A DNA stretch of 64,000 nucleotides from a bacterium. Its GTDB lineage: Bacteria > Krumholzibacteriota > Krumholzibacteriia > G020349025. The translations under genes were made by a program, and so were the position numbers. Positions 1,010-64,000 of the stretch are shown here, in pieces; position 1 is the first letter of the stretch; each line of letters begins with the position of its first letter. The DNA lies in NCBI GenBank assembly GCA_031362565.1, contig JANLSU010000048.1, forward strand, positions 1 through 64,000, written 5' to 3'. The notes beneath the pieces are model-generated. The model searched no databases. It was given only the letters and a program-made list of their open reading frames with translations, and was not told where the DNA came from.

Positions 1010-2155
<1,146 letters not shown>

Positions 2156-2161
2156 CAGCGC

Positions 2162-5616
<3,455 letters not shown>

Positions 5617-5620
<4 letters not shown>

Positions 5621-7299
5621 GGATGTGCCTCCCAACTGCGAATGTGCGCGACGATGGCTTCGATCTCCGATTGCGCCAGGGCGCGCCGCGTGACGGAGCC
5701 GGTGCCAAATCCCAACATTGAACTGCCGCGCCGGCCGCGGCGAATGGTCTCCACGAGATAGGTGTCGGTCGCGTTCCGCAGCAACGTCGGGTTGGCGAGC
5801 GCGGTGCCTTCGCCGCCCTCGCCGTTCTTGCCGTGGCAGGCGCTGCAGCTCGCGGCGTAGAGCGCCGCGCCAATGCGCGCGTCGCCCGCGACCCAACGCG
5901 CCGGTTTGCCATCGTCGAGCGGACTTGCACCGCCACCCAAGCTGCGGACGTAGGCGACGACGAAATCGATTTCTGCCGGCCGCAAGCCGCCTTCCGACTC
6001 ACCCCAGGCCGGCATGCGACGCGGCCGGCGTCCGTGCGTGATGGTGGCCTTGAGGAATGCGTCGGACGCGATCCCGAGGAAATCCGGATTGCCGATCGCC
6101 GGGAATGCCACCATGCCTGGATAACGCATCCCCTCCCCGTTCGACCCATGACACGCAGCGCAGAACGTGCCGAAGAGAGTGGCGCCATCGGCCGAGAACT
6201 CGCGCGCCCCGAACCGCTCGGCGCGCACCCGATCCTTTGGCCAGTACGCTTCGGGCAGATTGCTGCGCCGCAGCGACAGCATGTAGAAGACGAGCGCATC
6301 GATATCTTTTTCTGTGAGGCCGAATTCCGGCATCGCCGATCCGGCGACCACGACGGCGGGTTTGCGGAAATGCTCCGCGAGCCAGTTCGCGACCGTGTGG
6401 GCGCCCTCGACGTGGGTGAAATTGCGCTGCCCTGGATCCATCTCACCGATGCGAGTGAGATCTGGACCATCGTCACCGCCGACGCCGCCGACCTTGTGAC
6501 AGCCGCGGCAGCCGCGCGAGTGGAAGACCGCCTTGGCCTCAACGAGTCCCGCCGCACCGACCCGCGACACCAGCAGCGCTTCGATGGCGTCGCGATCTTC
6601 GGGGGCGATTTCGGCGAACGACGTGCGCCACGCCCGAACGCGGCTCGTATCGCGCCGCGCCAAGTGGTGTGGGTACCAGTCGCGGTCGAAGCCGGCGGCG
6701 CCGACGCGCGACAGGTCGGGCCCTTCCATACCGCCGGCGCCGCCCGGACGTGTGGTGCCGCCGCGGCCGTCCAGTTTGTGACACGCCAGGCAGTCATTGC
6801 GCTCCACGAGATTCTTGCCGTGTTCCAGTGCGGCAAGGCGCGGCACTTCGAGATGGGTGTGACACCCACCGCAGCCTGCCGCGGCGTAGTGCCGCGGAAT
6901 CATCGGCTGCGGCCAGTTGGGCACGTCGCCGTGCGCCGCGGCGCGCTCCGTAGCACGCCCCTGTCCGCCATGACAAACGGTGCAGCCGAACTCGCCGGGG
7001 TCATGAAAGACGTTGGGATGATGCGCAAAGAGCGCATTGCCGGCGACGCCCGTCTCGCCCGGCGCCATGCCGACGTGGCACGACACGCAGCGGTCCGCCG
7101 CATGCAAGTTGGGCACCACGATCTGCCGCAGCTGCACCTTGAATTCCGCGGCGTTGGCGGCGGGCAAGTGGCGTTTGTAGTCCCGCTGCACGACGCGCCA
7201 CTCTTGCAAGGCGTTTTCGCGATACGCAGCCCATCCGAGCGCTACGAGCGTCGCGAGGCTCGACCAAAGCAGCAGGTGTTTGTTGGCTCGTGCGTTCAT
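5617..7299 (-). CDS. Membrane-anchored multiheme cytochrome c (7 CxxCH)
   Basis: N-terminal TM helix; CVSCH, CTVCH, CGGCH, CLACH, CRGCH, CAACH, CSACH. Confidence 0.9.
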
Positions 7300-31999: not shown

Positions 32000-32265
32000 G
32001 GGGGCACTGCTGGTCGCCCTGCGGGTCCATTCTGCCGTGGATCGGATTCGCGCCCCTCTCGCTCCAGTGTTGCACGCGGAGCAGCGAGGTTCGAAGGCAG
32101 CGGAGGAAGAGCAGCCGACGCGGTTTGGAAACGAACGCGCGTCGAATGAGATCACAGCTGTGGTGCTGATCGTTTGCACCCGACGTTGCGTTGTATCCAC
32201 GCTGTGCCCGTCGTATCTGCGCCCACCTACGCGCGGATTCGGCTCGCAAGGGGGAAACCGATCCG

Positions 32266-32934
32266 ATGAAGAGAGTGTCGTTGCTCACCACGGCCGCCAT
32301 GCTCCTGCTCGCGGGAAGCGCTGCGGCCCAGAACGCTCTGATCGACTATCAGGGCTACTCCTACGAGACCGGTGGATTTCCGGTCAGCAATCCCGGCGAC
32401 GTTTTGTCGATCGTCGGGGTCGTCGACAATCTCGATGCACGCTTCGGCGTGAATCTGGCCGTTGACGAAGTAACTCTGTACGTCACGAATCTCGTTTCGA
32501 CGGGCCAGGTCGACCAGGGCGGCGGAGTCCTCTCCATCGCCTACGGCGGCGGCTCCATCGATCTGTACCGCGACCCGAGCCGTGATCACGATTACGGCAT
32601 CTCGCCGCCCAACGCGACCGCACCGTCGACGTTCACGAACGGCGCATTGTTCCTGGGCGGAACGCTCAACAGTTTCTTCATGTTCTACGATTCCGCGACC
32701 GGCAGCGGGGCGTACGAAGGCAATGCGTCCTTCACGGCAGGAAGCGGTTTGGTGACGCTGAACCAGTTGAATGCGGCAGGATACACATTTGGTGGAACCC
32801 TCGGTTCCGCAGCATCCGGTGGCAACGTTCCGGCGGGTTACGACCTGCAGGTCGACGGCGTCATCGAAGTCGAAGTCATCGTCGGCGTCGAGCAGAAGAG
32901 CTGGGGCGCCGTGAAGGACCTGTACCGCCGCTGA
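32266..32934 (+). CDS. Secreted protein A1 with SWGAVKDLYRR tail
   Basis: Signal peptide; Gly/Thr/Ser-rich beta-type body; paralog of 34066-34734. Confidence 0.88.
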   Translation: MKRVSLLTTAAMLLLAGSAAAQNALIDYQGYSYETGGFPVSNPGDVLSIVGVVDNLDARFGVNLAVDEVTLYVTNLVSTGQVDQGGGVLSIAYGGGSIDLYRDPSRDHDYGISPPNATAPSTFTNGALFLGGTLNSFFMFYDSATGSGAYEGNASFTAGSGLVTLNQLNAAGYTFGGTLGSAASGGNVPAGYDLQVDGVIEVEVIVGVEQKSWGAVKDLYRR

Positions 32935-32998
32935 TCGCGGTCGAACCCAATTTGTCGAACACACACATCGTAGGATGAGGTTCGTTCCGGAGGTTTTC

Positions 32999-33622
32999 AT
33001 GCACATCAAAGCGACTGCAGCTTCGCTGGCCGTGGTGGCGTTGCTGGCCAGCGCCGGTGCCGCGGTGGCGGATCCGCCCAACTTCGATTTCTTCGGCTAC
33101 GCGCAGGTCCCGGCAGCGCCCGGGGGCGGACTCATCGTCCGCAGCGTGTTGACGAACAACGGGGTCGTCCCGACGCCCATCGTTCTCGACTTCACCACCA
33201 AGCAGTACACACTGGTGATCACCGGCACGTTCGCAAGCGCCGCCGGCATCGCGCAGCAGTACAGCGGCGGTACGTTGTCGATCTACGAGGACGCGATCGG
33301 CGGCGGAACGGCGGCAAACTATGCGAGCCCGGCGACCTTCACCGACGGCACGTTGATTCTGACCGGCGTCGTGGACGGCAACCTGACCCGCAACACGTTC
33401 ACGCCGACGCTCGGCAACTTCATTGCCAAGATCGACTTCACCGGCGGCACCCGCTTGGGGAGCCTGAGCACGCCCCAGGACTGGCCGTGCGGCGGCGGCT
33501 GGAGCCGGAGCGTTTCCGGGATCCCGGCCGGCTACCAAGAGAACTGGGACGGCAAGATCGACCTCGCGGTCGTTGGCGTCGAGAGCAAGAGCTGGGAAGG
33601 CGTCAAGGCCCTCTACCGCTGA
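32999..33622 (+). CDS. Secreted protein B1 with SWEGVKALYR tail
   Basis: RBS GGAGG; signal peptide; paralog of 34783-35406. Confidence 0.88.
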   Translation: MHIKATAASLAVVALLASAGAAVADPPNFDFFGYAQVPAAPGGGLIVRSVLTNNGVVPTPIVLDFTTKQYTLVITGTFASAAGIAQQYSGGTLSIYEDAIGGGTAANYASPATFTDGTLILTGVVDGNLTRNTFTPTLGNFIAKIDFTGGTRLGSLSTPQDWPCGGGWSRSVSGIPAGYQENWDGKIDLAVVGVESKSWEGVKALYR

Positions 33623-33806: not shown

Positions 33807-34065
33807 GGCCGCGATCCGTACAGCAGCCCTCGGAGCGATTCACGTTCTCTGCACGTTGATCGTTTTGGGAAAAGCCGCCGGAGTCATCTTTCGAACTGCT
33901 GGCATCACGATTCATGCATGCACCAGCTCGCGGTTCGGTTGCCGTCCGAGTGTTCAGCGACACGCGATGGAGTCCGTCTCCTCTGCACTTGTGGTTCGAC
34001 ATCTGCGCCGTCACCGTTGACGCGAATCGCGCGACAGCGTGACCTCGTAGGGAGGGAAGCCTCGG

Positions 34066-34734
34066 ATGAAAAAAACCAACTTCATGATCGCCGCGATGGC
34101 GCTTTTGGTGAGCAGCGCCGCTCACGCGAACGTTGCCATCATCGACTACCAAGGCTACGCGTGGGAAACGGGCGGCTTGCCGCTCAGTAATCCCGGCGAT
34201 GTGCTCTCGGTTGTGGGCGTCGTCGACGCGCTCGACGCCAGCTTCGGCGTCAACCTGTTGATCGACGAAGTCACGGTCTACGCCTCGGGTCTCGTGTCGA
34301 CCGGCCAAATCGACCTGGGCGGTGGGGTGCTTTCCGTGTCGTACACCGGCGGCACGCTCGAGCTCTGGCGCGATCCAAGCCGCGACCACGACTACGGTGT
34401 GTCGCCGCCGAACACCACCGCACCGCCGACGTTCGTAAACGGCGGGCTCTTCTTGGGCGGCACGTTCCAGAATTTCTTCCTGTTCCTCGACACGTCCACC
34501 GGGACCGGCGCTTTCCAGGGCGACGTCGCCTTCACGGCCGGCAGTGGAATCGCGGCGCTGAGCGCCCTGCAGCCCAACGGGTTCACGTTCGGAGGAACCT
34601 TGAATTCGGCGGCGTCCGGCGGCAACGTGCCGGCGGGATACGACATGCAAGTCGACGGAACGCTGCAAGTAGAAATCGTCACGGGCGTCGAGGACAAGAG
34701 CTGGGGCGCCGTGAAGGAAATGTACAGACGGTAA
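34066..34734 (+). CDS. Secreted protein A2 with SWGAVKEMYRR tail
   Basis: Paralog of A1 (IDYQGY..ETGG, RDPSRDHDYG.SPPN, GGNVPAGYD.QVDG). Confidence 0.9.
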   Translation: MKKTNFMIAAMALLVSSAAHANVAIIDYQGYAWETGGLPLSNPGDVLSVVGVVDALDASFGVNLLIDEVTVYASGLVSTGQIDLGGGVLSVSYTGGTLELWRDPSRDHDYGVSPPNTTAPPTFVNGGLFLGGTFQNFFLFLDTSTGTGAFQGDVAFTAGSGIAALSALQPNGFTFGGTLNSAASGGNVPAGYDMQVDGTLQVEIVTGVEDKSWGAVKEMYRR

Positions 34735-34782
34735 TCGGGCGACATCGCTTCAACCCTTGGCAACGCGGTCCCGGAGGTTCAA

Positions 34783-35406
34783 ATGAGAGTGAAAGTTCTC
34801 GCTGCTGCGCTGGCTCTGGGGGCGCTGGTGACCAGCCCAGTCGCCCGGGCGGCCGATCCGCCAAACTTCGACTTCAACGGCTACGCCCAGGTGTCGGACG
34901 TGCTCGCCAGCAGCCTGACCATGCGTAGCGTGCTCACGAACAACGGCGTCGTGCCGACGCCGATCGTGCTCGATTTCACGACCAAGCAGTACACGCTCGT
35001 CCTCACGGGGACGCTGAGCAGCATCGTGGGCATCGCGCGCAACTACTCGGCAGCGACGTGCGCGGTCTACGAAGATGCAATCGGCGGCGGCACCGCGGCG
35101 GACTACGCGAATCCCGCCACCTTCACCGACGGCACCGTGATTCTGTCGGGGAACTTCGATGGTTTCCTGGTGCGCAACCGGTTCACGGCGACGCTCGGCA
35201 ATTTCATCGGCAAAGTTGATTTCAACGCCGGAACGCGCCTCGGGGACATGGTGACGGCACAGGACTGGCCGTGCGGCGGCGGTTGGAGCCGGACGGTGTC
35301 CGGGATCCCGGCCGGCTACCAGGAGAACTGGGACGGCAAGATCGACCTCGCACCGGTCGGAGTCAACAACCTGGGCTGGGACGGCGTGAAGCAGCTCTTC
35401 CGCTGA
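34783..35406 (+). CDS. Secreted protein B2 with GWDGVKQLFR tail
   Basis: Paralog of B1 (DPPNFDF, RSVLTNNGVVPTPIVLDFTTKQYTLV, QDWPCGGGWSR). Confidence 0.9.
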   Translation: MRVKVLAAALALGALVTSPVARAADPPNFDFNGYAQVSDVLASSLTMRSVLTNNGVVPTPIVLDFTTKQYTLVLTGTLSSIVGIARNYSAATCAVYEDAIGGGTAADYANPATFTDGTVILSGNFDGFLVRNRFTATLGNFIGKVDFNAGTRLGDMVTAQDWPCGGGWSRTVSGIPAGYQENWDGKIDLAPVGVNNLGWDGVKQLFR

Positions 35407-58653: not shown

Positions 58654-58871
58654 GAACGATGCGGCGGTTATGCGTGCGCGGGTGCGCGTCATCGGGCGCG
58701 CTGAAGCCGGCTTCGATCAGCAACTGAACAACTAGCGAGCCGCAAACACCAGGTGCGACCAGCCCCCCTTTGAGATTCCAGCCGCCCCTTGGAGGAAGAT
58801 CTCGGAATAGACGGGCGGGCGCCGTGGTTCCGAACAGGGGTTGGTCGCATTTGCTCCGAGAGCCTTTGAAA

Positions 58872-59342
58872 ATGAGGTGTGCCTTGAAATCAGCTGCCGT
58901 CGTGGTTCTTTTCGCTGCTGCGCTGGGAGTGGCTGGGTGCAAGAGTGACCCGGTACAGCCCATCATCAACAACAACGGGCCGGTCGCACCGACAACAGTC
59001 CTACGGACTGGAACGTTGACCGCGGAGAACGGCACCCCCACCGCAGGTTCAGTTTCGGTCATCCGCGACGCAAACAACGACCAATGGGTCACGTTCGGAT
59101 CAAATTTCACCTCGTCCTTCGCGACCGGAACCGTGACGGTTTATCTGGCGAAGGCTGCGTCGCGCATTGGCGATCAGCGCGTGCTCCCACCGCCTCCCGT
59201 ACCGAACATCCTTGCGGCCGGTTTCGTGTCGTCGAACGGCGCTCAGGCGCTGAAGCTGCCGGCGTCGTCGACGGGCTTCGGCTACGTCGTGCTGTACTGC
59301 GAGACTGCGGAGATCAATTTTGGCAACGCGCCCCTCAACTAG
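58872..59342 (+). CDS. DM13-like lipoprotein
   Basis: VAGC lipobox; VYLAK; YVVLYCETAEINFGNAPL C-terminus typical of DM13. Confidence 0.7.
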   Translation: MRCALKSAAVVVLFAAALGVAGCKSDPVQPIINNNGPVAPTTVLRTGTLTAENGTPTAGSVSVIRDANNDQWVTFGSNFTSSFATGTVTVYLAKAASRIGDQRVLPPPPVPNILAAGFVSSNGAQALKLPASSTGFGYVVLYCETAEINFGNAPLN

Positions 59343-59358
59343 GGTGCTCGGACTGTCG

Positions 59359-60135
59359 ATGAAAAGAGTCCAACGATTGCTCCCGATGTTCATCGTGGCA
59401 AAAGCGGCGATGGCAGAAGGCGCGACGCTACCGGTTGATCACCGCATGTTCGATGAGCTCCTGCATCGATATGTCACGCCGGCAGGTGTCAGCTACCAGG
59501 ACTGGTCGCAGCACCCCGAGGACATTCAGAAACTGCGCCGGTACTTGAGCGGACTCCAATCCGCAACCCCGTCGCAGATGGGAGCCGAGCCGGCGCTTGC
59601 CTACTGGATCAACCTCTACAACGCTGCGACACTGAACTTGGTGCTGGAGAAGTATCCCATCAAGAGCATCAAGGACATCGGGGCGCCATCATCGTCGCCT
59701 TGGGAAAAGACCGTGGCCACGGTCGAGGGGCGGCCACTCTCGCTCAGTCAAATCGAAAACGACGTGATCCGGCCGAAATTTCACGCCGCTCGGAGCCATT
59801 TCGCGCTGAATTGCGCCGCCCGCGGTTGCCCACCGATTCGGCCGGAAGCCTACGTCGGTGAACGCCTCCGCAGCCAGTTGGAGGATCAAACCAAGCGCTT
59901 CCTGGGTGACAGGAAGACGAACTTTGTCGACGCCACGGGGACGATTTGGCTGTCGAAGATCTTCGAGTGGTATGCAGCCGACTTCGAGGCGGCGAGTGGA
60001 TCCGTCTGGGCGTTCGTAGCGCCGTATCTCGAGGGGTCCCCGGCGGGCGCAAGGAGCGCCTCGAAGTCGCCGTTGCGGTACACAGAATACGACTGGACTC
60101 TCAACGAGGCCACGAACAAGCCGCCAAAAGACTAG
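59359..60135 (+). CDS. DUF547 domain protein
   Basis: AYWINLYNA, HFALNCAARGCP, LSKIFEWYAADF, YDWTLN. Confidence 0.9.
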   Translation: MKRVQRLLPMFIVAKAAMAEGATLPVDHRMFDELLHRYVTPAGVSYQDWSQHPEDIQKLRRYLSGLQSATPSQMGAEPALAYWINLYNAATLNLVLEKYPIKSIKDIGAPSSSPWEKTVATVEGRPLSLSQIENDVIRPKFHAARSHFALNCAARGCPPIRPEAYVGERLRSQLEDQTKRFLGDRKTNFVDATGTIWLSKIFEWYAADFEAASGSVWAFVAPYLEGSPAGARSASKSPLRYTEYDWTLNEATNKPPKD

Positions 60136-60194
60136 GCGTGCGGATGCATTCGCGCGCAAGCTGCCGGAACACTTTGCAAACAAAGGCTGCATGA

Positions 60195-61043
60195 ATGAAA
60201 CCGCTTGTTGCCCTGACGCTGGCTTGCAGCTTTCTCCTGCTCGGCGGCGAGGCCCACGCGGGTGGCGGCTGGGCAAGGCGGCCGCACTCCCTTTACGTGA
60301 AACTTGCGGCCACGACCTTGACTTCCGATGCCTTTCACATCAGCAACGGCACCGTCGTCCGAACGGCGGACTTCAACACTCAGACCCTGCAGCTGTACGT
60401 TGAATACGGAGTCCTCAACCGGCTCTCGGCCGTCCTGGACGCGCCGGTCTTCAAACGCGCCGCCTACGTCACAGCAAGCTCCGCGAGTGGGATCGGTGAC
60501 CTGGGGCTAACGCTGAAATACGCCATCCTGACCGGGCGATTCCCGGCGTCGTTGGGGATCGGCGCCGAATTTCCGACCGGAAACCGGCAGGCCTTTGGGG
60601 TCAACAAGAACAATCCCGAAGTGCGGATCGTCTTGCCGACCGGAGACGGTGAATTCAACACCTGGCTCCGCACTTATGTTTCGCATTCGTTTCACCTCTG
60701 GCCGGGGTTCGCGTCGATCGATGTCGGCTACAATCTTCGGACGATGGGCTTCACGAATCAATATCAAGCCAACCTGCAGTTGGGTTACAAGGCATCGAAC
60801 GCCGTCTGGGTGTTTGGCGACCTCCGTCGGTTTGCGACCGCGGGCACACCGCGAGGCGGTGCCGTATTCTCGTCCATCGGCATCGGCGAAGGCGTCGAAT
60901 ACACATCCTATGGCATGGGGCTCTCCGTCGAAGTGGCGCCACATACGGATCTGACGGGCAACGTCTCCGGTGGTCTGGGGAGGGCCAAGAACATCTATTC
61001 GGGGCTCAATCTCGGATTTGGCATCGCAGTCGATCTGCCATAA
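60195..61043 (+). CDS. Putative outer-membrane beta-barrel protein
   Basis: Signal peptide; YVEYGV, GIGDL, PTGDGE; alternating beta strands. Confidence 0.7.
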   Translation: MKPLVALTLACSFLLLGGEAHAGGGWARRPHSLYVKLAATTLTSDAFHISNGTVVRTADFNTQTLQLYVEYGVLNRLSAVLDAPVFKRAAYVTASSASGIGDLGLTLKYAILTGRFPASLGIGAEFPTGNRQAFGVNKNNPEVRIVLPTGDGEFNTWLRTYVSHSFHLWPGFASIDVGYNLRTMGFTNQYQANLQLGYKASNAVWVFGDLRRFATAGTPRGGAVFSSIGIGEGVEYTSYGMGLSVEVAPHTDLTGNVSGGLGRAKNIYSGLNLGFGIAVDLP

Positions 61044-61176
61044 TCGGCAGAGCGGCGGGAATTTCTGAGGACCGCCCGGGGTTCGGGAATGTGGTGACTG
61101 GTCGGCGTATTCACGGGCCACTCGGTTCACCGGTTTGCCGGCCCGGTAGGCCAACGCTCGAAGGGGAGTGATTCCG

Positions 61177-62052
61177 ATGCACGGTCGTGTTCTTCGGTAT
61201 GGTCTCGGCATCGCGCTCGTGGGATTTCTGATCTCCGGCGCCGCGAATGCCGCCCTCCTCGAGGGGCAGACCGCCCCCAACTTCACCAAGGACCAGCTCG
61301 ATGCCCCTGCCCCGGCGGCGCGCTCCCTGTCCAACTACGCCGGCAAGGTCGTGGTGCTCTTCCTCCAGGGTTACAACTGACCCTTCTGCCTCACCGACGG
61401 TCCGTCGGTGCAGCAGGACATCTGGACGGCCTACAACAACTCTCACCCGGGACAGGTCCAGGTGATTGGCGTCGATCTCTACAACGGTACCGCCGCCCAG
61501 GAGCGGTCGTTCGGCAATGCCACGGGCGCGACGTATCCTCTACTCCTGCGGGGCGCCGACGGCGCGGCGGGCGTTGGAAACTTGAACACGCTGTATATGC
61601 CGACGTCGGGCGTCACTTACGACAACTACGTTGTGATCAACAAGCACGGCATCGTGCGATACCACGCTGCGAACCGCTACGCGCACGGCAACCGGTACCA
61701 CTTGAACGAGATCCGGGGGACAGTCGACTCGCTCGTGACGAACCCGACGGACGTTGGCGACGGGCCCGGCCCGCTCGGATGGTCGCTTCGTGTCACCCCG
61801 AGCCCGTTCCATGCCACGACCTCGATCGAGTTCGTGAACGATGGACCTGCAACAACGGCTCGCCTGCGCGTCTTCAACCTTGCGGGACGCGAGATCGCGG
61901 CTCGGTCCGCGAGCGCGGTGCCGCGGGGACCCGGCCACCTGTCGTGGGATGGGCGGGATACCGCCGGGAATCGGGTCGCCTCGGGCGTGTATCTGGTGCG
62001 AGTCGAGGTCGGAAGGGTCCGACTCACCAGTCGCGTGGTGTATCTCGAATGA
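61177..62052 (+). CDS. Selenoprotein: exported AhpC/TSA-redoxin (UxxC) fused to FlgD-Ig C-terminal domain
   Basis: ORFs 61168-61380 and 61408-62052 are in frame and separated only by TGA 61378-61380; readthrough gives APNFT...GKVVVLFLQGYN-U-PFC...VQVIGVD...YPLL...VVINKHGIVRY. Confidence 0.85.
61392..61410 (+). promoter_or_regulatory. Candidate bacterial SECIS hairpin
   Basis: CACCGAC-GGTCC-GTCGGTG stem-loop with G-starting loop, 11 nt after UGA; lower stem CTGC/GCAG. Confidence 0.75.
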
Positions 62053-62621
62053 GACTGGCTGTCGCACGGATTGCAGCGGTTGTCGCGGCGGCCGTCACGA
62101 TCCTTCTTGGAGTCGCAACCGGCTCCGTCGCGGGGCCGCTCGAAAAAAGACCGGCGCCCCGTTTCGAGGTCCGGAGCTTGAGTGGTGAACACCTGCGCTT
62201 GGTGGATCTCCTGGCGCACGGTCCGGTGCTCCTCGACTTTTGGGCCACCTGGTGTAAACCGTGCTTGGCGTCGCTCCCGGAACTCGAAAAGCTGCACCAG
62301 CGCTATCGCGCGCGCGGGCTCACCGTGCTCGGGATCTCCGTCGATGGACCTCGGAACTTCGTCAAGGTGAAACCCTTCGTCCAGAAACTTCACCTCACCT
62401 TCCCCGTCGCCCTCGACGAGGACGGCTCACTGCAAGCGAAGTACTCCGTTGGCGGCTACCCGACGAGCGTGCTCATCGGGGCTGACGGTGCGGTGGATTT
62501 CCTCTTGGAGGGCTACCAGCCCGGTAACCTCGACGCGCTGGAAAAGAGGCTCCGGTCCCTGCTCGATGGGGGCGCAAGGGATTCCGCCGCGCAAGAATCG
62601 CCGCCGGATTCAACGCGATGA
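62049..62621 (+). CDS. TlpA-family thiol:disulfide oxidoreductase
   Basis: LDFWATWCKPC, GYPTSVLI; ATGA overlap with the selenoprotein gene. Confidence 0.92.
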   Translation: MRLAVARIAAVVAAAVTILLGVATGSVAGPLEKRPAPRFEVRSLSGEHLRLVDLLAHGPVLLDFWATWCKPCLASLPELEKLHQRYRARGLTVLGISVDGPRNFVKVKPFVQKLHLTFPVALDEDGSLQAKYSVGGYPTSVLIGADGAVDFLLEGYQPGNLDALEKRLRSLLDGGARDSAAQESPPDSTR

Positions 62622-64000
62622 CCCGCTGCGTTCGATGCCGAGTCGGGCGAGCGTTGCTCGCTTCCATGCTTGGAATTTTCACTCTTCTCGCCCCCAAGCC
62701 CGCACTCGCTCAGCTTTCGCTCTACAACCTGCTCGTGGGCCAGGCCGGCAACGAACCCTTCGCCACTCCGTCCGACCGGCTGTCGCTCTACGACCGGTTG
62801 CACGTCGATCTCGATCTCCCCAACGTACGCGCGGGGCTCCGTTGGGAAACCAATCGGAATAGCCTCGAACTCGATCCGTACGGCGCCGTGACGTTTCGCT
62901 ACGTCGAGTTCACGGACAAGAGGGGCACGCTCCGCCTCGGAAATTTCTACACCATCCTGGGGCGGGGTATCGTGCACCGCTCGTTCGATTTGCCAGCGGT
63001 GGTTCTGGACCAGCCAGGCACCCAAGCCCGTTACGCCCCGTCGCGAGATGTCGACGGGGCGCTGGGCGAAGGCCGGCTAGGGCCTGTTGGAGCGCGCGGA
63101 TTCGTGGGGCGACCGAGCGGTGGCGATGTCTCGCCGGCTTCGGGGGATGCGCGCTATGGAAACCTCGAGGCCGGATCTGAGGTCGCTGCGGATCTGTGGC
63201 GGGGGACGCGGCTCGGCGCCACCTATCTCCGGGCTTCCGGGCCGGCCGGTTCGCGCTCGGAACGAGGCTCAGGGTTCGTACAGGCGGATCTACTGCAGCT
63301 CTTCGGCACGAGTGTCGTGTCTCTGCCGTTGTACTTCGAGTATGCGCAGGTCGACGGCTCGCTCGGTGATTGGTTCCGATTCGACACCGCCGACGACGCG
63401 CCGCACGCGCTCTATGTTTCCAGCAGTTTGCTCGTAGACCCGATTAGTATCGCACTCGAATGGAAGGACTATCGGGGCTACCGTTTCGGCACCAACGATC
63501 CTCCCTCGCTCGTCCGCGAGCACTCCGAGCCACTCCTCAATCGGAACACGCACGTTCTGAACGCGGAGAGCGAGACGGGATACCAAGTCGAGGCTGTCGT
63601 GAACGCAACGCGCCAGCTCTCCTTCACCGGCAACCTGAGTCGGGCGGACGGCGACTTCGCGCGTCGCAGCTCACGCTTCCAGGAACGTTACTTGGAGGCC
63701 CACTGGGGCGCACTGGAGCCCGGGGGCTTGGAAGCCGGCGCTTTCTGGAGCAGCGGCCGGGACCAGTTCGTGTTCATCCAGCGCCGCCGGATCACCGGCG
63801 CGGGCGTCGTCGTGCCGTTGCCCGCCAAAGTACAACTGACGGCGGAACTGGAGCGCCAGGCGGCGACTCGGACCCCCGAGGTGTCCTTTGTCGATCACTA
63901 CGGTTCGCTCCAGTTGGCCCGCGGCAACGCAAGTTTGGCCGTGGTGTACGAGCGCTCCACCGATCCAGAGCAGGAGGCCCCGGACGACGCCGCAAGCGCC
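62618..64000 (+). CDS. DUF6029-like outer-membrane protein (partial, runs off window end)
   Basis: Absent from the ORF track; segments translated by hand give a signal peptide, LGNFYTILGRG..RS and EWKDY...NDPPSLVREH...ETGYQVE; ATGA overlap. Confidence 0.75.
   Translation, partial: MTRCVRCRVGRALLASMLGIFTLLAPKPALAQLSLYNLLVGQAGNEPFATPSDRLSLYDRLHVDLDLPNVRAGLRWETNRNSLELDPYGAVTFRYVEFTDKRGTLRLGNFYTILGRGIVHRSFDLPAVVLDQPGTQARYAPSRDVDGALGEGRLGPVGARGFVGRPSGGDVSPASGDARYGNLEAGSEVAADLWRGTRLGATYLRASGPAGSRSERGSGFVQADLLQLFGTSVVSLPLYFEYAQVDGSLGDWFRFDTADDAPHALYVSSSLLVDPISIALEWKDYRGYRFGTNDPPSLVREHSEPLLNRNTHVLNAESETGYQVEAVVNATRQLSFTGNLSRADGDFARRSSRFQERYLEAHWGALEPGGLEAGAFWSSGRDQFVFIQRRRITGAGVVVPLPAKVQLTAELERQAATRTPEVSFVDHYGSLQLARGNASLAVVYERSTDPEQEAPDDAASA

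Follow-up and report, generated by a model that had tools for sequence, protein, structure and literature searches.

A candidate surface selenoprotein redoxin heading a conserved gene unit with a TlpA-like reductase and an outer-membrane barrel

Cascades running from DsbD or ScsB to TlpA are membrane-crossing thiol relays that feed exported thioredoxin-fold proteins. They cross the inner membrane, whereas the relay proposed below would cross the outer membrane, and no relay of that kind was found described in the literature searched. Selenocysteine (Sec) versions of redoxins have been catalogued among the predicted prokaryotic selenoprotein families, namely a Prx-like thiol:disulfide oxidoreductase (PF00578, UxxC or UxxU) and a Redoxin family protein (PF08534, UxxC) (PMC13188914, Table 1), and the text of that review makes no mention of T9SS, secretion or periplasm. 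HBP35 of Porphyromonas gingivalis is described as a protein with a thioredoxin motif and a C-terminal domain that is moved to the surface by the T9SS, and its insulin-reducing activity requires both cysteines (PMC2907840, PMC3120885). Exported bacterial selenoproteins are represented by SaoB, SaoX and SaoC, which are described as carrying signal peptides and facing outward (bioRxiv 10.1101/2022.07.06.499078).

Here, we describe a redoxin gene of a bacterium of the phylum Krumholzibacteriota, located near the end of the analysed stretch of 64,000 nucleotides (hereafter the window). As far as descriptions can be compared, the redoxin shares with the catalogued families their Pfam families, the UxxC motif and an in-frame UGA with a bacterial SECIS, and adds a signal peptide, a T9SS-type tail, Asp in place of the cis-proline and a TlpA-barrel context (PMC13188914). 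HBP35, as described, differs in having Cys and not Sec, in binding haem and in belonging to a host with a standard motor, and the Sao proteins are described as lipoproteins or ABC binding proteins, mostly of monoderm anaerobes, with CU motifs and no outer-membrane passage. The TlpA/ResA/DsbE proteins (NF002854; 2ls5, 3kcm, 3gl3) are the closest folds (Z 17.5, 16.2) and are likewise exported with a dithiol-type motif at a helix start, but the redoxin has no Trp before the motif, no cis-Pro and an extra Ig tail, and it is the neighbouring gene that is canonical TlpA-like.

The first-pass annotation, made from the sequence alone, had called a surface or extracellular selenoenzyme of this type unusual. 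This description needs to be toned down: UxxC redoxin selenoproteins are catalogued as predicted (PF00578 and PF08534; PMC13188914), Cys forms with the same architecture occur widely, and a thioredoxin exported by the T9SS is known in HBP35. The combination of these features was not found in print. Approximately 53 full-length Cys representatives occur among the best 150 matches, under names including Calditrichota, Marinimicrobia and the cultured bacterium Gracilimonas. Our full-text literature search, which covered the main texts of papers outside subscription journals, returned no paper joining a selenoprotein with the T9SS, nor any that treats the T9SS in these phyla or a redox role of DUF6029, and members of the redoxin family may already stand in large supplementary selenoprotein tables.

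The redoxin gene and its codon 68

The gene and its parts are as follows.

61177..62052, forward strand: whole redoxin gene, 291 aa with the codon-68 TGA as selenocysteine, one internal TGA
61163..61168, forward strand: ribosome-binding site GGGGAG, 8 nt upstream of the ATG, from sequence
61177..61251, forward strand: Sec-pathway signal peptide, aa 1-25, with an A-x-A cleavage site and no lipobox, by inspection and a crude hydropathy test
61261..61665, forward strand: redoxin domain (ResA/TlpA/BCP-like thioredoxin fold), aa 29-163, Pfam PF00578 and PF08534
61378..61380, forward strand: predicted Sec68 (TGA), first residue of U-P-F-C in the context G-Y-N-U-P-F-C, from codon comparison and contigs
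61387..61389, forward strand: Cys71, second motif residue, kept in 69/69 full-length close homologues listed
61392..61410, forward strand: putative upper stem-loop of a bacterial SECIS, with 8 pairs and the loop GUC at 61400-61402; the lower stem reaches 61384-61418
61621..61623, forward strand: Asp149 at the thioredoxin-fold cis-proline position, aligned with a Pro in both 3kcm and the neighbouring TlpA
61792..62049, forward strand: FlgD-Ig/T9SS type-A-like C-terminal domain, aa 206-291, with GVYLVRV, PF13860 above cut-off

An ORF caller cuts this gene into ORFs of 70 and 214 aa, the split that the first-pass annotation had recognised, and the public protein set holds only the 214-aa piece after the TGA (P0152). 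As claimed there, the TGA at 61378-61380 is in frame at the first Cys of the CxxC motif, and two Pfam models run across it, AhpC-TSA over aa 30-162 (35.9 bits, cut-off 26) and Redoxin over aa 29-163 (34.2 bits, cut-off 26.6). The FlgD_ig model covers aa 214-277 (39.1 bits, cut-off 27). Frame, Pfam matches and hydropathy test thus agree on the proposed 291-aa protein with a signal peptide, Sec68/Cys71 and an FlgD-Ig domain, and the gene is colinear with the full-length Cys homologue P0049 (51% over 285 columns). Its AlphaFold model, built from 22 sequences (pLDDT 80.5), shows a thioredoxin-fold domain and a beta-sandwich, connected by a linker of low confidence.

The SECIS of E. coli fdhF requires a spacing of 11 nt after the UGA. 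The hairpin reported to match this spacing does begin 11 nt past the UGA, with eight pairs found at 61392-61410. RNA 61381-61420 folds at -21.1 kcal/mol (z -4.3), a value reached by none of 200 shuffles, with a weaker signal on longer stretches (z -1.8 and -1.9; 14 and 10 of 200 shuffles), and 8 of 300 synonymous recodings of the same peptide fold as well (p 0.027). The bacterial SECIS consensus is described as having 16-37 nt to the loop and a loop that begins with G followed by G or U (PMC13188914); here there are 19 nt to the loop, which begins GU. No comparable hairpin accompanies the terminal TGA of the gene (-2.4).

All four genes that the first-pass annotation had proposed to look for, selA, selB, selC and selD, are present in the host genome (G000; 100% complete, 1.85% contamination): selA, selB and selD score above their cut-offs, a tRNA-Sec(UCA) is found, and selD itself has an in-frame TGA. 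Across the class sample, selA occurs in 61/61 genomes. Sequencing error had been named as a possible source of the TGA, and the contigs retain TGA at codon 68, with 0 differences from the probable source run over the redoxin stretch; a second study's contig (X5, record 21, 61297-61568, depth 2) shows four differences, none of them at the TGA codon.

Two scans of the collection, contributing 36 and 44 loci, supplied the closest relatives; the codon was readable in 77 of these 80 loci, which gave 87 copies. Because the copies are related and some of them nearly identical, their counts are not independent, and no probability was derived from them. Codon 68 is TGA in 72 copies, TGC in 12 and TGT in 3, and neither Trp, the residue named earlier as an example of a non-Cys alternative, nor any other residue occurs. 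All 69 full-length proteins among the 120 listed hits (of 264) have C-x-x-C, and the other 51 have their first residue at position 72 or 78, consistent with genes cut at the TGA; since callers keep the post-TGA piece alone in this way, the redoxin is invisible in databases. Within the host's own class the domain was matched in 21/61 genomes, with one TGA in 25 of 33 matches.

The RNA around the codon also differs between the two forms. In TGA forms the stem region folds at a mean of -11.6 kcal/mol, in Cys forms at -6.1; the loop-forming codon (+7) is GGT in 71/72 TGA forms vs 1/15 Cys forms, which have GGG, GGC or Ala codons there. Among 19 distant TGA copies the upper stem is 75.7% paired, with two-sided changes in 7/8 pairs, and exceeds all six slid controls; the lower stem is not conserved in these copies, RNAalifold yields 4 consensus pairs and no more, and in five of the 19 the fold is not stronger than that of synonymous recodings (p over 0.5). 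Of the 36 genomes to which the named loci belong, 32 have a selA match; three of the remaining four carry TGA forms, their completeness not being given. At least nine Sec/Cys changes are needed on a codon-masked tree of 82 rows, so selenium appears to be optional and often swapped. With the Sec machinery complete, the TGA kept in the contigs and TGA or Cys alone in homologues, the "stop" at codon 68 almost certainly encodes selenocysteine.

For a wider view, TGA read-through was scanned genome-wide under stricter settings (coding score plus hairpin). The scan kept 112 of 325 candidates and placed the redoxin gene third by coding score; its output is no selenoproteome, because it consists mostly of ordinary gene junctions and missed selD. 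Further probable selenoproteins lie at G000:C51:64523 (+), C115:12967 (+), C18:12733 (-) and C34:37040 (-) (loci L075-L078). Such candidates include a deiodinase-like protein with an N-terminal membrane segment (204.9 bits, cut-off 250), a SelT/W/H-like protein with CxxU, a C-U protein with a signal peptide and a weak YHS selenoprotein match and, on C34, a protein without family match.

Active site and putative export tail

Compared by Foldseek and VIA, the redoxin domain aligns to 2ls5 with Z 17.5, rmsd 2.3 and 144 aligned residues, and its best fold matches are ResA/DsbE-type disulfide oxidoreductases and BCP peroxiredoxins. BCP/AhpE peroxiredoxins reach Z 15.5 and 15.3, and Sco proteins 12.9 and 11.8. 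The features of the TlpA/ResA/DsbE family are lacking, as the motif G-Y-N-U-P-F-C has no Trp, Asp149 occupies the Pro position and the NF002854 score is 19.9 vs a cut-off of 170. Peroxiredoxins have the peroxidatic motif P-x-x-x-T/S-x-x-C, and the redoxin has neither the T/S-x-x-C of BCP/AhpC proteins nor an Arg at the cis-proline position. Because this position is taken by Asp149, we place the redoxin in neither the TlpA/ResA nor the peroxiredoxin subfamily. The Asp is found in 120/120 close homologues listed and in 42/53 distant homologues, and His170 and His163 are conserved in 113/120 and 109/120 close homologues listed, respectively. The protein would work like a thioredoxin-fold redox protein.

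The cis-proline is described as more conserved than CxxC itself and as probably binding the substrate, and it may prevent metal from binding to CxxC, for which Su et al. 2007 is cited there, with Arg at this position in peroxiredoxins (PMC2757866). Its replacement by Asp149 makes metal binding a real alternative for the redoxin. Another Sec-redoxin subfamily was observed in relatives (L061:447, L054:440, L051:206 and L060:2438), with the motif F-A-[DN]-W-U-P-V-C and its own hairpin and, besides a fusion to large beta-repeat and Ig domains, the same tail.

The crude signal-peptide test was passed by 64 of the 69 full-length homologues listed. As for the other end of the protein, the first-pass annotation had proposed a T9SS-like tail. 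In favour of this, FlgD_ig is above its cut-off, SprA, PorV and PorU are present, the family profile matches the PorZ tail (5m11 residues 651-741, E 6.8e-5) and Cys homologues bear the public name T9SS target domain; the tail falls just below the TIGR04183 cut-off (22.1 bits vs 23), and GldL and GldM found no match, so that the T9SS reading is supported as likely. Type IX signals are described by a G-V-Y-x-V-x-V pattern with V or A at position 4 (PMC5121618), and the redoxin tail fits the pattern, Leu at position 4 departing from V/A. Neither HBP35 nor T9SS tail structures were among the listed fold matches, lists that were filled by the redoxin domain, and HBP35 was also absent from the 11 PDB sequence matches.

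SprA was above its cut-off in 61/61 genomes of the class sample, and in the host genome 7 of 11 PorV matches and 3 of 52 PorU matches were above theirs. All three PorU end in the same tail as the redoxin, two of them being encoded directly upstream of a porV. The tail profile matched 210 of 4609 ORFs of the genome, at the C-terminus in 209 of them, and 136 of 204 tailed ORFs passed the crude signal test vs 28% of other ORFs. GldL and GldM had no match in the host genome, the controls being silent as well, and the best GldK match had 64 bits vs a cut-off of 350, which suggests an export machine other than the standard T9SS. It may combine expanded attachment parts with a motor outside the recognised types. 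The three PorU sortase genes and seven PorV-family genes, with no recognisable GldL or GldM, were noted at G000:C85:54670-64443 (-) and C131:37985-43060 (-). As judged from profile matches, the outer-membrane half of a T9SS is present and the tail behaves as its signal, and the redoxin is likely exported to the cell surface.

Partner genes, a second unit and probable gene transfer

Two genes follow the redoxin, each with a start codon overlapping the preceding stop. The first-pass annotation had noted neither these partners nor the absence of the cis-proline.

62049..62621, forward strand: TlpA/ResA-like reductase with a signal peptide, W-C-K-P-C and cis-Pro, start overlapping the redoxin stop (ATGA)
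62618..64000, forward strand: DUF6029-like outer-membrane beta-barrel, 518 aa, continuing to contig position 64174, start overlapping the TlpA stop (ATGA)

Gene order among relatives indicates that the redoxin heads a conserved redoxin-TlpA-DUF6029 barrel unit. Of the 43 loci that extend 1500 nt or more past the redoxin, 38 hold both partners and five lack them; seen from the barrel, 25 of 26 own-class loci have TlpA directly upstream and 19 of 26 have a redoxin within the 1.5-kb flank. The unit is dispensable, given these five loci and a strong barrel match (E below 1e-30) in 28/151 phylum genomes. No barrel homologues were found on plasmids or in 14 control genomes, and the redoxin unit itself shows no sigma-70 promoter match and terminator matches at chance level. 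Redoxin tandem duplications (2-3 copies) before one TlpA-barrel pair were observed in L096, L102, L105, L113, L116, L117, L036 and L045 and suggest several interchangeable clients of one barrel. In P0288, TlpA and the DUF6029 barrel form one chain, on a single contig where this could be a frameshift artefact.

The part of the barrel inside the window scores 26.8 with PF19494 (cut-off 27), and a further search did not list this locus under PF19494; the family is found in 120/120 barrel homologues, and 28/30 Atlas hits are DUF6029 at 0.97. The barrel model has approximately 24 strands, ends in Phe (pLDDT 86.7) and matches generic ushers and TonB receptors at 8-13% identity, with no plug domain match. 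Just past the window end lie C496-x4-C501 and the terminal Phe. This C-x4-C is invariant in 120/120 homologues, 86 of which have no other Cys, and in the model it sits in the hairpin preceding the last strand, which the predicted topology would put on the outer side; it could be a plain structural disulfide. The one paper found to name DUF6029 describes it as a possible polysaccharide porin (PMC9603273). One DsbD-type gene is found in the host genome.

Elsewhere in the window, three exported-protein genes at 58770-61043 (+) encode a DM13-like lipoprotein, a DUF547 protein and a 282-aa protein without family match, and they were left out of the unit because they had no match in 80 homologue loci. 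Positions 1013-5998 (-) encode type II DMSO-reductase-family alpha (1277 aa, with a twin-arginine-like start) and beta subunits, which reach no NCBIfam cut-off (at best 292 bits vs 985 and 271 vs 481) and which we take to resemble periplasmic nitrite oxidoreductase/nitrate reductase subunits.

The host genome has a second unit at G000:C75:31726-34408 (-) (loci L020, L213), with a Sec-redoxin, TlpA and a DUF6029 barrel with C-x4-C. Its redoxin ends in a short W-S-x-V-K-x-L-Y peptide and not in an Ig tail. Across the genome, W-[SG]-x-[VI]-K-x-L-[YF]-R is C-terminal in 74 ORFs, where its internal occurrences would predict 0.07, and no ORF carries both this peptide and the Ig tail; 50 of 73 ORFs with the peptide pass the crude signal test. 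Since it replaces the Ig tail on redoxin paralogues, the peptide may be an alternative sorting tag. Unrelated exported proteins with the short C-terminal peptide are also encoded in the window at 32170-32931 and 34051-34731 (+), and their neighbours at 32915-33619 and 34735-35403 have near-variants of it at the end.

The two units differ in their affinities. The C75 barrel clusters with copies from the host's own family (support 100), whereas the barrel and the redoxin of the window fall among loci that mostly bear the title Candidatus Eisenbacteria (support 99 and 100), and SelA groups the host genome with its own family, apart from the Eisenbacteria-type genomes. Own-class grouping was rejected by an AU test on the redoxin tree with outgroup (35 of 82 rows; p 0.014) and not rejected on the barrel tree without outgroup (21 of 48 rows; p 0.10). 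The other 150 phylum genomes sampled contain no barrel close to that of the window (best E 8e-65). Misbinning of the contig was considered and rejected, as the flanking genes, fabI and an M16 peptidase gene, are native: fabI is 63-71% identical to own-family genomes vs 47-55% in 12 genomes of Eisenbacteria-type loci, and the peptidase 64-70% vs at most 53%. By base composition the unit does not stand out as foreign (93rd percentile among 3-kb pieces; its GC3 of 0.75-0.81 is within range). The C75 unit is apparently native to the host lineage, and the simplest reading, which we consider likely, is that the window unit was acquired from an Eisenbacteria-like donor; the other reading is an old paralogue retained in this genome alone.

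Proposed mechanism, alternatives and significance

We regard it as virtually certain that SelB would bind the hairpin and UGA68 would be read as selenocysteine, and there is little doubt that the signal peptide would take the redoxin through the inner membrane. Recognition of the Ig tail by a SprA/PorV translocon, which would bring the enzyme to the surface, is probable with moderate confidence, and PorU may cut the tail and anchor the protein. That redoxin, TlpA and barrel work together is very likely. The chemistry is more tentative: at somewhat less than even confidence, the U-x-x-C centre would perform thiol/selenol-disulfide exchange at the outer membrane and be re-reduced via its neighbours. 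Electrons would pass from DsbD in the inner membrane to periplasmic TlpA, on to the Cys pair of the DUF6029 barrel and from there to the redoxin, which would reduce or reshuffle oxidised surface thiols, for example in the approximately 280 tailed exported proteins of the cell. Selenium would be an optional, faster nucleophile, with Sec and Cys forms alternating in the family. The chain as a whole, from UGA recoding through export to an outer-membrane exchange recharged by DsbD, TlpA and barrel, is a working proposal that falls a little short of an even prospect. Its weakest points are the surface location, the access of TlpA to a hairpin that the predicted topology would place outside, and the chemistry at a site lacking the cis-Pro that typical disulfide oxidoreductases retain. 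More doubtful is its strongest version, in which the unit would be a thiol/selenol conduit across the outer membrane, TlpA reducing the barrel hairpin through the lumen for a surface selenoenzyme, together with a new thioredoxin subclass (Asp for cis-Pro) and a T9SS that works without the known motor and takes as its signal either an Ig tail or an 18-residue tag.

Several other explanations deserve weighing. The redoxin might stay in the periplasm or on the inner face of the barrel, with the Ig tail as a binding module, so that redoxin and TlpA would assist the barrel by folding, proof-reading or gating it, without electron passage across the outer membrane. The motor genes not found, the tail below the TIGR04183 cut-off, the 18-residue peptide in place of the tail in the C75 paralogue and other relatives, and the multi-domain relatives P0010 and P0028 without Ig tail all speak for such an arrangement, which we still consider rather unlikely because SprA, PorV and tailed PorU are all present, the Cys homologues are named T9SS target domain and the tail shows the described G-V-Y-x-V-x-V pattern (PMC5121618). 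Location aside, the site itself might have another use. The protein might be a selenoprotein that binds a metal or metalloid at U-x-x-C and Asp149, with the barrel as channel and its Cys pair passing the ligand on, and TlpA would then maintain the thiols in reduced form, the role that TlpA-type proteins have towards Sco copper chaperones. We judge this improbable. The closest structures are disulfide oxidoreductases and BCP, with Sco at Z 12.9 and 11.8 vs 17.5, no metal-homeostasis genes stand beside the unit within the window, and His163 and His170, conserved though they are among the close homologues listed (109/120 and 113/120), are not kept outside the Eisenbacteria-type clade; what recommends it, besides these histidines and a large barrel without plug domain match, is the Asp in 120/120 close homologues listed at a position where proline may prevent metal binding (PMC2757866).

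The fold leaves some room for a surface seleno-peroxidase of BCP- or GPx-like type, removing peroxide and recycled by its neighbours, as BCP/AhpE proteins come close behind in the fold searches (Z 15.5, 15.3) and some public entries are named peroxiredoxin. Selenols favour peroxide reduction, but the redoxin lacks T/S-x-x-C and an Arg at the cis-proline position and has its Sec in the first, thioredoxin-like position, which makes this reading quite improbable. By far the least credible is that the TGA is a real stop, in a pseudogene or split gene, an assembly error or a Trp codon. Its one recommendation is the GTG 27 nt downstream that opens the 214-aa ORF reported by gene callers, and against it stand a fold that would be cut at the active site, TGA in 72/87 close copies and 25/33 own-class matches with Cys and never Trp as the other residue, and the SECIS-linked codon choice of TGA forms; TGA also terminates the redoxin and TlpA genes, and only tRNA-Trp(CCA) and tRNA-Sec(UCA) are present.

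Should the proposed recoding and export be correct, the cell would send a selenoprotein over its outer membrane, a case for which no description was found in the literature searched. The unit carries more weight still: surface thioredoxins such as HBP35 need an electron source outside the outer membrane, and we know of none; TlpA and a barrel with one invariant Cys pair would provide a testable candidate for such a source. The interest of the redoxin lies in its probable surface location, its altered active site and its conserved TlpA and barrel partners. In addition, paralogues within one genome that end in either an Ig tail or a short peptide would constitute a natural experiment on protein sorting in uncultured phyla.
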